Below, one piece after another: positions 33,142-62,465 of a stretch of DNA of 64,000 nucleotides. The notes below the pieces were generated by a model. That model was not told where the DNA came from. It did not search any database and worked only from the letters and a program-made list of their open reading frames with translations. Position 1 is the first letter of the stretch; each line of letters starts with the position of its first letter. Origin of the DNA: a virus; IMG/VR virus record IMGVR_UViG_3300048919_000175, positions 1-64,000 of that record. One strand, 5' to 3'. The translations under genes were made by a program, and so were the position numbers.

Positions 33142-33689
33142 AGTATTCCCCTGTTGATTAGCTCTATATAGCATTTGGCGAGAGCTCGTGTGTCTGGCTC
33201 CGCTCTGTGATGGTCGGCAAAGTCAAAGCCGAACAACTCTGTGTGCAATGCCCCAAGGTTTAGTCGGTATCCCTTGAGCCATTCGGTCCCTTCAATGGTG
33301 CAGATTACCTCCGGCCATTCAATGGTCTGGTCGACGCGACGCATGTCGAAGTTGGTCATGTCCACGTCGTAGCCCGCATTGTGCGCCACGACGCGATCAT
33401 GCGCCTCAATTGTCTCTTTGACTTTAGGAGCGAAGTGCCGGAACTCCGGCACGTTCTTGAGCAGGTCTGGCGTAATGCCAGTGATGCGGGTCGTCTCTGC
33501 CGTAATGGCGAATGGCGGTCGGCAGAGAAAGCTCAGCGTCGGGGCTGTCTCAAGGTAGCCCGGCTCATTCATCAGGTCATGGTCAACCGTGATCCCAAAG
33601 AATTCAATGATGTAGGGTTGGTCCTTGAGCGGACGACCAATGTTCTCGATGAGATTGGTCGTTTCCGTATCCCATACGAATGATTTCAT
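33138..33689 (-). CDS. DEDDh 3'-5' exonuclease (DnaQ/epsilon-like)
   Basis: WDTETT, AHNAGYD, HRAEPD. Confidence 0.9.
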   Translation of the reverse strand: MKSFVWDTETTNLIENIGRPLKDQPYIIEFFGITVDHDLMNEPGYLETAPTLSFLCRPPFAITAETTRITGITPDLLKNVPEFRHFAPKVKETIEAHDRVVAHNAGYDVDMTNFDMRRVDQTIEWPEVICTIEGTEWLKGYRLNLGALHTELFGFDFADHHRAEPDTRALAKCYIELINRGIL

Positions 33690-34192
33690 TACAGCACCGT
33701 CGGCGGTACGACCTTGCCTTCGGGCGCTTCCGGCAACAACTCGGGCGGCGGCGGAGGCTCTTCTGCGGTCAGCGCCAGCTCACTATCGTCAAAGACTAAC
33801 GGCTTGCCCGGCACGATCGGATTTACCGGGAACGTGTAGGTGCTGGCCTCAGGTTCCTTGGGGAACATGTCTGCCGTAGCTTCGTCCAAGGCTGCACGCT
33901 CTTCGCTGTCCAGTTCCTGGAGCATCTGCGTGTACACGGTCATATCGTCGAGGCTGTCCGGATGCCCGCCCTTTGCGAAATTCTCGCAATAGCGCGTCAG
34001 CTTGGCGACCACTTGGGTCAGGATGCCGAACCGATTATGGTCGGCACGGTCTTGCAGTTCGACGCCAGCCGGAAACAGGGCGTTCATGACTTCACCATGG
34101 CGCTTGTAATTGTCGCCATAGAGCTTGTTGCGTTCTTCATAGATACCGGCTGCATCGCGCAGGGCTTGCGGTACTGATTTAATCTCGGTCAT
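33689..34192 (-). CDS. DUF6378-like all-alpha protein, nucleotide-metabolism associated
   Basis: A....ER...YG, K..R, H.DS..D...Y pattern. Confidence 0.6.
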   Translation of the reverse strand: MTEIKSVPQALRDAAGIYEERNKLYGDNYKRHGEVMNALFPAGVELQDRADHNRFGILTQVVAKLTRYCENFAKGGHPDSLDDMTVYTQMLQELDSEERAALDEATADMFPKEPEASTYTFPVNPIVPGKPLVFDDSELALTAEEPPPPPELLPEAPEGKVVPPTVL

Positions 34193-34632
34193 CCCAGAAC
34201 TCCATTGCGGACCTGCCAGCATTCAACGCCAGCGTTGCGATAAGCCTCGACCACATCGTCCTTGTGGTCAAGTGCGAGGTAGTGACCGTCGCCATAATTG
34301 CGACGTATCTCTTCAAGATACTGCATCTTCAGTATCGGCTCCTTCGTCTTGGGGATATCGTACTTGTCACGATACATCACCCAATCTGGGTAAATCCCAT
34401 ACTTGCCGAGCCAAGCATTCGTCTGGAATTCCCACTGCTGGTAGCGCACAGTTACGATGACGAAGCGATATTCTTCGTGCATCAATAGCCGGACTGCCGA
34501 AACCGTATTCTGGAACGGGAGGTCGTCTACACACGCGGCCTCGTATTCGTCCCAAAGCCCGGCCTTGAACAAATGCTGGCGGTGGGAATTGTCCGCCAGC
34601 ACGCCTTCGAGACTTGCGATGACTACCAACAT
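34189..34632 (-). CDS. HAD-fold PNKP-phosphatase-like protein with degenerate motif I
   Basis: ASLEGVLAD.SHR replaces FDxDG. Also T..WL, K, and LDHK..VVE.YR..G. Confidence 0.7.
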   Translation of the reverse strand: MLVVIASLEGVLADNSHRQHLFKAGLWDEYEAACVDDLPFQNTVSAVRLLMHEEYRFVIVTVRYQQWEFQTNAWLGKYGIYPDWVMYRDKYDIPKTKEPILKMQYLEEIRRNYGDGHYLALDHKDDVVEAYRNAGVECWQVRNGVLG

Positions 34633-38645: not shown

Positions 38646-38664
38646 TAAACTACCTTGCATTTTA
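38646..38664. promoter_or_regulatory. Palindromic operator, copy 1 (divergent promoter region)
   Basis: TAAACTAC-CTT-GCATTTTA. Confidence 0.55.
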
Positions 38665-60009: not shown

Positions 60010-60909
60010 TGATTATCTCCCATGGCCCGTGGGCCTTTTGGTATGGTTTTGTGGCGAGTTCACATTGGACAGCTTGTATTTTGTGAGGCCGCTGGCAAAT
60101 TATTACAATATTAATAACCTAGTAGCAAGGCGGAAGACCATGGGCTAGTTGTAAGTCATTGCATTGATAATGGGCAAAGGTTGGGTTTGTAAGGAAAGTA
60201 AACCAAGGTGCATGGATGGCTGTTTTGCGACCTTGGCCCATTGGCCCCAACAAAAACAAGGAGTTGCGGAGCGAAATGTAGATCACAAAGCATTACCGTT
60301 TATATACTTGCTTTGTTATGAGGCTGTAAAATTTTTTTAGCCATTAGGAATTAATTATTATAAAAAGTAGTAGTTAAAATAGTAGTATAGGACAAACCAA
60401 GGTCGTGAGCGGTAATGGTTTGTACTTGCCGCACGCCCGGCATTTCCGAATTCTACTGTCGCGGCTGGCCAATATACGATTTTCCAGACCCGCTTAGAGA
60501 ACTGCCTGTTTTGGGAATTTGGTTTAACCTTTCGTCGCTGAGGCCGGTAGGCTGGCCAATACTTGGGCGGCACCCGCACCTCTCCCTCTCATTCTCGGCA
60601 TTTAGACGACCGTCCTTTTGTACATACTGACTAAAACATGTACTTAGTACACTTTTGCCCTGCACCATGGGCCTAGCGCCCTGCACCTTGCCAGCCTAGA
60701 CATGCGCACACTGCCACAGAGACAGTCAAGGAGCGCAATGGGCCATGGCCCTAGTACCATGCACCCGCCAGCGTGCTAACGCGCTGTACGGCCTGCTCCG
60801 TGGCAAACAAACATTCAAGGAACGCTATGTAGTTCCATAATGCATGTTATGCAACAACAGCAAAAGCTAATATAACCCCTGCCGCTGGCCCTCGGCACCC
60901 TAGACATGC

Positions 60910-60925
60910 TTAACAGATCGTTAAC
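60910..60925. promoter_or_regulatory. CtrA box
   Basis: TTAA-CAGATCG-TTAAC. Confidence 0.6.
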
Positions 60926-61119
60926 GCATACAATTTAATTAAAATGCCACCAAATCGATCTACTCCTAGCGACGATCTAGTGCCCCGCTGCGTCGCGTCT
61001 CCGTGTCTTTTAAATTCCACCAGAATTCTTTTCAACGAAAGGTTGTACGTTTTAAAACCATGCCGGTTGGGAATTGGCCATGGACGATTTGCAGAAAACA
61101 GTTTTCCAATTTCCATGGT

Positions 61120-61157
61120 AAAAACACCTTGTATTTTAGCCAGTCCTCCCTTATACC
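61120..61157 (+). promoter_or_regulatory. Operator copy 4 overlapping the promoter of the Y RNA transcript
   Basis: AAAAACAC-CTT-GTATTTTA, with TTGTAT-17-TATACC. Confidence 0.55.
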
Positions 61158-61269
61158 TACCCCATGCGCCATGGGCGATCGGAGAAGGCACCGGGCCGAC
61201 AGCCCGTGCGATGGTATCCTTTCGTTTGTCAAACTTGGCGCTAACTCGATGGCCCGCCGAATAAAGCGA

Positions 61270-61392
61270 TAGCCATCACATGACGAAGTGCGATATGCGA
61301 AGGTCGGCGGTTCGAGCCCGCCCATGCCCGGAAGGCCGTGTAATCTCAGCTGGTAGAGGGTCACATACCGCACGTGCCGTCTGCAGCGGCTA
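61270..61392 (+). ncRNA. yrlA: YrlA-like bacterial Y RNA (circularly permuted tRNA mimic)
   Basis: GACGAAG matches GNCGAAN(0-1)G. T arm GGCGG-TTCGAGC-CCGCC precedes a GGAA-capped acceptor stem and D arm TCTC-AGCTGGTA-GAGG. 5' and 3' ends pair. Confidence 0.8.
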
Positions 61393-61399
61393 GTCTCTC

Positions 61400-61432
61400 A
61401 AGGCCCATGGCAACCGGAGCCATGGGCCTTTT
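61400..61432 (+). terminator. Rho-independent terminator after the Y RNA
   Basis: AAGGCCCATGGC/GCCATGGGCCTT followed by TT. Confidence 0.8.
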
Positions 61433-61460
61433 GCATTTACAGAACGATCAGGAGCAAACA

Positions 61461-61847
61461 ATGAGCGATAACTACCAAGCAATCTACGACGCAGTGCGAT
61501 CGAGGTTCAGCAATGTCGACGCCAACCAGATCATTCGCGAGCATGTCTCCATGCTGACCAACTCTGCCGGTCATGCCCTCGACATGGCCCGAGCCAATTT
61601 CGATAGCATGCTAGGGGAGCATCAGCGCCCTTCTGTGCTTTATCGGCCAACGCTGACGCAAGACGGCGATCACTGGCTCGCGATCTATGGTGATTTGCAA
61701 TCCGGCGTCGTTGGGGCCGGTCGCACTCCCGCTCAAGCCATGCAGGCGTTCGATCAAGCTTGGCACAAGCCCGCCGTGGCACCACCCAAGCTAAAGCCGA
61801 ACAACTGGCGCGCTCCGCCTCCGCCGAAAGAAAGTTTCATACCATGA
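61461..61847 (+). CDS. Hypothetical protein with HicB-like C-terminal motif
   Basis: AGGAG RBS, DG..W.A.Y.DL..G....G.TP..A...F. Confidence 0.7.
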   Translation: MSDNYQAIYDAVRSRFSNVDANQIIREHVSMLTNSAGHALDMARANFDSMLGEHQRPSVLYRPTLTQDGDHWLAIYGDLQSGVVGAGRTPAQAMQAFDQAWHKPAVAPPKLKPNNWRAPPPPKESFIP

Positions 61848-62465
61848 ACATGGACTATAACACACTAGGCGAGCTCGGCGCGGCAGGCTTCATGATTGGA
61901 GTGTTCCTGTTGTTCCTCCTATTCGCAATTTTCAAGTACGGACCTTAATTATGCCGATGAACGAAGACGAGCTTTACACTCTACTGGAAAAGTACATCCG
62001 CTGGGTCTATCTCTGCGAAGGCACAACATTCATCCACGACCACGGCTCAGAAGAATACTTCTCCAAGGAAGAGCTTGAACAGCTACTTCATTTCTACAAG
62101 AAGCTCAGGGAAGAGTAGCATGGACGCATTTACGATCATAACGCTTATAATCGGCTTGCTCTTGGACTGCATCATCATTGCCGCCTATTTAAAGTCGAAG
62201 CTGTGAAGGACATCCAATGCCCCACTTCACATTCTGGATTATCTTTCTGCCGATGCTGGCGTTTTGGCTCGGGTGTCTCAAGGCCCGTCGCTCAAGTCGT
62301 CGGAGTGAGGATTGCGAGGACTAAGTCATGACACCGCTTAACCCCTGCCAGTTTCGTGAGGTTAAAGCTTGTCAAATAGCTGCGTGGCAGGTAGCATTCT
62401 GAGGCACACTGAAATGTTATCCCCTTCCTCCCGGAAGTTTGCATATTCATTGTTCTCCTGAATTA

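Follow-up and report, generated by a model that had tools for sequence, protein, structure and literature searches.

A divergent YrlA-type RNA is conserved in a complete phage genome without a recognizable Ro60 gene

Why would a phage carry a Y-RNA-type gene and no gene for the protein that such RNAs accompany? Bacterial Y RNAs have so far been found, and indeed defined, by their position beside Ro60, and the original survey was limited to genomes already having a TROVE gene (PMC4201824). A Y-RNA-type gene in a phage that lacks Ro60 raises two questions: is the RNA used in trans on a host Ro60, and can it function without Ro60, for example on PNPase? A sequence-only reading had described such an orphan RNA in the window, the 64,000-nt stretch of phage DNA analyzed here. 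The window is the first part of a complete genome of 75,899 bp with 127-bp direct terminal repeats, which belongs to a myovirus-type tailed phage encoding a terminase, portal, HK97-type capsid, tail sheath, DnaE-type polymerase, primase and helicase. For comparison, a sister phage is represented by a near-complete contig of 76,146 bp (L128 / L223, CAZCMS010000002.1), the capsid of which is 94% identical.

Direct reading and folding of the sequence gave the following elements of the RNA.

61279-61383, plus strand: YrlA-type RNA core of about 105 nt, read directly from the sequence.
61279-61285, plus strand: 5' strand of the basal helix P1 (CA, a bulged U, then GACG), which pairs with 61378-61383.
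61282-61288, plus strand: GACGAAG handle, matching GNCGAAN0-1G and identical in the sister phage.
61288-61300, plus strand: 5' strand of the long stem that replaces the anticodon arm; it pairs with 61361-61373.
61301-61305, plus strand: variable loop AGGTC, invariant in the sister phage.
61306-61322, plus strand: T arm GGCGG / TTCGAGC / CCGCC, invariant in the sister phage.
61323-61340, plus strand: closed acceptor-like hairpin CATGCCC-GGAA-GGCCGTG, with 7 stem positions and a GGAA loop.
61341-61360, plus strand: connector TAA (U8-A9-like), D arm and G26, invariant in the sister phage.
61344-61359, plus strand: D arm TCTC / AGCTGGTA / GAGG, read directly.
61361-61383, plus strand: 3' strands of the long stem (61361-61373) and of P1 (61378-61383), from direct reading and folding.

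The permuted arms, handle, long stem, variable loop, closed acceptor and D arm that the sequence-only reading had described were all recovered in the same places and in the same order. Some details changed. The acceptor stem is present but contains a C.C mismatch at 61327/61336 that had been overlooked, and the hairpin has no free CCA end. The helix given as GAC/GTC proved to be GACG/CGTC, lengthened across the bulged T61281 by the pairs C61279-G61383 and A61280-T61382. At the junction of P1 and P2 sits the handle, whose sequence occurs only this once on the plus strand within 500 nt. The long stem is paired at 11 of its 13 positions, the mismatches being A.C at 61293/61368 and C.A at 61298/61363, and is parted from P1 on the 3' side by the internal-loop residues GTGC (61374-61377). 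An outermost helix of TAGCC (61270-61274) with GGCTA (61388-61392) had also been proposed; this pairing can form but is not conserved, as TAGCC lies in a 33-nt block (61247-61279) that is absent from the sister phage.

The nucleotides that make tertiary contacts in tRNA are complete: U8, A9, A14, G15:C48, G18 and G19, T54-psi55-C56, and A58. C61305, as position 48, is the Levitt-pair partner of G61349 (position 15), and G61360 occupies the place of nucleotide 26. The triples U12-A23-A9 and C13-G22-G46 are also accommodated. The proposed fold, at -33.1 kcal/mol, lies within 0.3 kcal/mol of the MFE structure (-33.4 kcal/mol), which retains P1, the T arm and most of the long stem. The 136-nt stretch was no more stable than its shuffles (z = 0.66). 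A lack of excess stability over shuffles is usual for tRNA-like RNAs, and this value was not counted against the proposed structure.

The family assignment was analyzed with Rfam covariance models. Of 4227 families, YrlA (RF02553) was the sole one with E<=1 in the region 59.9-63.3 kb. Its model aligned over the full length (model positions 1-114) at 23.9 bits, with E = 0.012 in a search of 701 nt with all families and E = 3.2e-4 when the whole phage genome was searched with YrlA alone. The match to the YrlA model, a search that the sequence-only reading had proposed as a check, was thus full length and without a competing family, but fell below the Rfam gathering threshold of 69 bits. This cutoff is too strict to exclude membership, since YrlAs outside the seed taxa that do adjoin Ro60, from Alphaproteobacteria, a cyanobacterial plasmid and phages, reach just 31-48 bits on RF02553. 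The Rfam tRNA model gave no match in 59.9-63.3 kb at E<=1, and the 17 nt preceding the variable loop form no anticodon arm. The YrlA model also gives sub-threshold matches in control bacterial genomes, most likely caused by tandem tRNA genes, a source of false positives flagged by the authors of the model (PMC4201824). Tandem tRNA genes cannot explain the match here, because ARAGORN detected zero tRNA genes in the whole phage genome, and an artefact of this kind was excluded.

The comparison with known YrlAs revealed a shared design and divergent details. Both have a permuted succession of variable region, T arm, closed acceptor-like hairpin and D arm; both contain the full set of tRNA tertiary-contact nucleotides, with the Levitt pair G15:C48 among them; and in both GNCGAAN0-1G, which has been proposed as the Ro60/Rsr contact (PMC4201824), lies on the 5' strand of the terminal stem. 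Furthermore, about 35 reference RNAs, folded from their 5' and 3' parts, showed the same plan of P1, internal loop and P2 as the phage RNA. In contrast to YrlAs, the phage RNA has no conserved YUAY/GUUAUC element at the start of the variable region; it has AUAU at 61293-61296, which is lost in the sister phage. Its D stem is UCUC/GAGG and starts with a U.G pair, whereas GCUC/GAGC was found in 20 of 20 reference RNAs. The near-invariant D and T stem sequences that mark YrlAs are replaced, the T stem being GGCGG/CCGCC, and the connector is UAA, with an extra A between positions 8 and 9, instead of UA. The 13-position stem is continuous to the junction, unlike in YrlAs, which have an internal loop beside the tRNA-like domain; in this respect the phage stem resembles the anticodon stem of a real tRNA, which also runs unbroken into the junction. 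Finally, the CG of the CGAA motif is paired in the phage RNA but lies in the internal loop in typical YrlAs. The earlier identification as a YrlA was therefore upheld by the architecture and by the GNCGAAN0-1G motif, but not by the score, by the D stem and YUAY element, or by adjacency to rsr.

Conservation between the two phages is concentrated on the RNA. The core (61280-61392) is identical to the sister phage at 107 of 113 positions, and the spacer together with the terminator at 42 of 44 (95%), compared with 69% identity over 61101-61246 and 50% in the stretch past the terminator (Fisher p ~1e-7 for core versus flank). The tRNA-like head is the most conserved portion (58/60 positions). The T arm, variable loop, D arm and handle are unchanged, as is P1 except for its outer pair, where C-G became U.G with pairing retained. 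The acceptor hairpin of the sister phage, altered by a 1-nt deletion and a C>T change, has lost the C.C mismatch and forms 6 unbroken base pairs capped by a 5-nt loop. The long stem there has gained one pair (C.A became C-G) and lost two. With two orthologues at hand, covariation support for this stem is almost nil. Recombination mosaicism is an alternative source of the 95% identity island.

Outside this pair, no YrlA match was detected in the capsid relatives G001, G002, 7-7-1, OLIVR4, Milano and Yong-L2-223, and the 59-64 kb region is not conserved in G001 and G002, both complete IMG/VR genomes. Pattern scans for close relatives of the RNA recovered only the sister contig among the species genomes, none in IMG/VR and none among 89 metagenome hits.

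The transcription unit around the RNA was analyzed in the same manner.

61120-61138, no strand assigned: 19-bp palindrome, present 5 times in the window; this copy also occurs in the sister phage.
61163-61278, plus strand: variable 5' leader with small hairpins; 61163-61246 is 72% identical to the sister phage.
61400-61436, plus strand: strong intrinsic terminator with a 12-bp G+C-rich stem, a 7-nt loop and a T-rich tail.

A promoter-like element, TTGTAT (61129-61134)-N17-TATACC (61152-61157), overlaps the palindrome. Its hexamers have the same spacing in the sister phage, where TATACC is replaced by TATATA. A consensus sigma-70 scan made no call at 61129-61157, and no clear promoter was found immediately before the RNA core. 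Judged from its sequence, the element at 61120-61157 is a likely control or start region for the transcript of the RNA. The five copies of the palindrome, at 38646, 42148, 49043, 61120 and 62517 (consensus TAAAAtACCTTGtATTTTA), are all intergenic.

Farther upstream, the block 60905-61100 (on to 61162) is 90% identical to the sister phage, with substitutions that show no third-position bias; a TTAA-N7-TTAA box is located at 60910. The block probably has a regulatory role without coding for protein, or else specifies another RNA ahead of the Y-RNA-like gene. The open reading frame 60944-61264 was considered as a protein partner and rejected: its amino acid identity to the sister phage (65%) is below the nucleotide identity, its substitutions are not biased to third codon positions, it has no Shine-Dalgarno sequence, and its frame continues into the RNA in the sister phage. 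Altogether, the 1.2 kb upstream of the RNA behaves as non-coding.

The sequence-only reading had seen no TROVE protein in the 64 kb, and its description of the RNA as an orphan was borne out in the complete genome, beyond the window included. Neither Pfam TROVE nor Pfam vWA_Ro60 had a match in the 75.9 kb. A custom Ro60 profile, built from 41 phage and metagenome proteins and run with filters off and E up to 10, detected no TROVE fragment (best E 0.55). Accordingly, the phage RNA, unlike YrlAs, has no rsr within 4 kb or anywhere in the genome. A Pfam and PHROGs survey of about 100 ORFs found no DUF7873, HEPN, RtcB/RtcA, PNPase, RNA ligase or CCA-adding enzyme, and no conserved protein gene adjoins the RNA. 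The sole RNA-repair-like match in that survey is a 177-aa protein encoded at 33689-34222 on the minus strand, which matches a polynucleotide kinase phosphatase domain (Pfam HAD_PNKP, 4e-11) and the PHROG "polynucleotide kinase/phosphorylase". Its gene belongs to an operon for nucleotide metabolism; neither a kinase nor a ligase was seen as its partner.

Among other phage records with a permuted tRNA-like RNA, 9 of 13 have TROVE and a tenth has a divergent Ro60-like ORF; most metagenome examples also adjoin a TROVE ORF. Association with Ro60 is the rule for such RNAs, and the phage locus is an exception. In the literature searched, phage Y RNAs were described only together with a phage Ro60, and no description of an orphan was found; the paired cases are those of mycobacteriophages, phiLo, a Listeria phage candidate and jumbo phages. 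We conclude that the RNA is a real, selectively kept, divergent YrlA-type molecule and an orphan in its phage. It may be a descendant of a YrlA or may have been re-derived from a tRNA, and we prefer neither origin.

The tenth record mentioned above, L045 (IMG/VR record G008, 171,661 bp, complete), carries at 1-1284 a YrlA-like RNA beside an ORF that is cut at the start of the locus and of which 381 aa are seen. Pfam TROVE misses this ORF and Pfam vWA_Ro60 matches it weakly, whereas the custom Ro60 profile recognizes it with E 3e-80. With standard annotation, this example of a divergent phage Ro60 would go unrecorded. Both the Rfam YrlA threshold and Pfam TROVE used alone overlook real members, and surveys for orphans therefore need more sensitive models.

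Since the phage is without Ro60, the only protein partner known for such RNAs, the RNA probably works through host proteins. The capsid is 50-57% identical to those of the Agrobacterium phages 7-7-1, Milano and OLIVR4 and of two Synechococcus PCC 7002 phages. TTAA-N7-TTAA boxes, which resemble the CtrA motif, are enriched in the window (8 observed versus 0.35 expected, between 47741 and 60924). The two closest IMG/VR relatives, G001 and G002, have 13 and 4 copies of this CtrA-box-like sequence, while the Agrobacterium phages 7-7-1 and Milano and Synechococcus phage Yong-L2-223 have only 0-1. This enrichment points to an alphaproteobacterial host, and the host is probably of this class. Searches aimed at the host yielded no plasmid match to the phage and no prophage relative. 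The sister contig is filed in a genome bin of Candidatus Saccharibacteria, which is probably a binning artefact and not a host assignment; no TROVE/Ro60 was found in that bin.

TROVE was present in 28 of 400 genomes of one alphaproteobacterial order, that of Methylorubrum (~7%), and in 7 of 400 other alphaproteobacterial genomes sampled (~2%). Because TROVE is this rare in Alphaproteobacteria, a host Rsr is a priori unlikely, unless the RNA was captured from an Rsr-carrying host. TROVE also occurs on plasmids of Rhizobium leguminosarum, Bosea and Picosynechococcus PCC 7002. On plasmid pAQ7 of Picosynechococcus sp. PCC 7002 (L307, 3120-3450), several tandem Y-RNA/tRNA-like units lie upstream of the TROVE gene. 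PCC 7002 is the host of the two named phages with the capsids closest to that of the present phage.

The best explanation of the whole, which we favor tentatively and with a confidence slightly short of even, is that an RNA of YrlA design uses host Rsr and/or PNPase in trans. Transcription would run rightward, probably from the palindrome and promoter-like element at about 61120-61157, to give a transcript of about 270 nt, which may be trimmed to the core of about 105 nt. In the infected cell the head would fold into a tRNA-like L shape, which would shield the RNA and serve as a surface for docking. The handle would recruit host Rsr where the host has one, and/or the RNA would bind host PNPase directly. 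In this way the phage could reprogram or titrate the structured-RNA decay and quality control of the host, and would be spared the cost of a Ro60 gene. The sequence-only reading had proposed titration of host Rsr, PNPase or RtcB, or a decoy function, and either may apply. As YUAY and the GCUC/GAGC D stem are missing, Rsr-associated factors may recognize the RNA differently.

A comparison is offered by Thermus phage phiLo, whose Yrl1 and Yrl2 are likewise Y-RNA-like RNAs encoded by a phage and carry a CGAA motif within a stem-bulge-stem (PMC12135203). Binding of the phiLo RNAs to host PNPase does not require Ro60, and PNPase is attenuated by the ternary complex (PMC12135203). In contrast to the present phage, which has the RNA alone, phiLo has its own Ro60 beside its RNAs, and the term "tRNA-like" is absent from the phiLo paper (PMC12135203).

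It is also conceivable, although unlikely, that this is a Y RNA that needs no Ro60 at all, phage and host both lacking Rsr, and that it acts on a universal host factor. The target would then most plausibly be PNPase, reached through the tRNA-like head, or another tRNA-binding enzyme, with the purpose of weakening RNA decay in the host, or its RNA-based defense, during infection. If true, YrlA-type RNAs would be stand-alone viral effectors and not accessories of Ro60.

A further, distinctly unlikely explanation is a Ro60-independent tRNA mimic, in which the head would be a decoy or sponge for host tRNA-binding factors and the stem a scaffold. Suggested targets are tRNA-directed defense nucleases, modification enzymes, RNase P and the CCA-adding enzyme, and YrlAs are indeed known substrates of TruB, DusA, RNase P and the CCA-adding enzyme (PMC4201824). 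With its 5-nt variable loop, one residue at position 26 and a directly stacked stem in the manner of an anticodon stem, the head is nearer to a real class I tRNA than are typical YrlAs; it is the part best conserved in the sister phage, and the phage has no tRNAs of its own. However, an RNA without an anticodon loop cannot be a substrate of anticodon nucleases, and the closed acceptor end blocks recognition that depends on aminoacylation. Moreover, the GACGAAG handle and P1 are conserved too, and neither would be needed in a mere scaffold.

The RNA could alternatively be a functionless remnant of an rsr-yrlA cassette, its protein gene deleted and the RNA not yet decayed. This we regard as improbable. 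Most phage YrlA-like RNAs do adjoin Ro60, distant relatives without the RNA suggest a recent and dispensable acquisition, and two pairs of the long stem are broken in the sister phage. A decaying remnant is nevertheless hard to reconcile with a 95% identity island of RNA and terminator between flanks of 69% and 50%, with the hairpin-preserving changes in the acceptor stem, or with a genome in which no TROVE fragment was detected anywhere, even with filters off and E up to 10.

Improbable to at least the same degree is a particle formed with an unrecognized phage protein unrelated to Ro60. Many ORFs belong to no family, such as the 559-aa ORF at 66205-67884, and any of them might encode such a partner. 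Against this, no ORF surveyed showed DUF7873, HEPN or another RNA-binding family, and the vicinity of the RNA offers no conserved protein gene: the upstream 1.2 kb looks non-coding, the 128-aa gene downstream is absent from the sister phage, and the next ORF that is shared with it encodes a small hydrophobic protein.

Least of all do we expect a cis-acting 3' module without a role in trans, whose fold stabilizes or processes the 3' end of a transcript starting at about 60.9-61.16 kb: the 90% conserved, apparently non-coding block 60905-61100, the lack of a clear promoter directly before the core and the nuclease-protective tRNA module discussed for YrlAs (PMC4201824) speak for it, but conservation is lowest in the leader that joins that block to the core (65-72%, plus the 33-nt indel), and a simple stabilizer would not need a Ro60-type handle.

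The locus provides a compact test system for use of the RNA on host Rsr or PNPase, comprising one RNA gene, two natural alleles and related phages without the RNA.

Two features downstream of the RNA were also observed. A predicted hairpin of ~76 nt (window positions 62194-62280) has a second motif of the GNCGAAG type, GUCGAAG, at its base. The hairpin overlaps small ORFs and could be a YrlB-like handle or a chance occurrence. The 128-aa gene (61461-61847) lies directly past the terminator, and its only homologues, with about 50% identity, are on two IMG/VR contigs. In a synteny search for orthologues, no YrlA-type RNA was found near these homologues. One of the two contigs, L121 (a provirus), also has an RT-15 RNA and a Proteo-phage-1 RNA.
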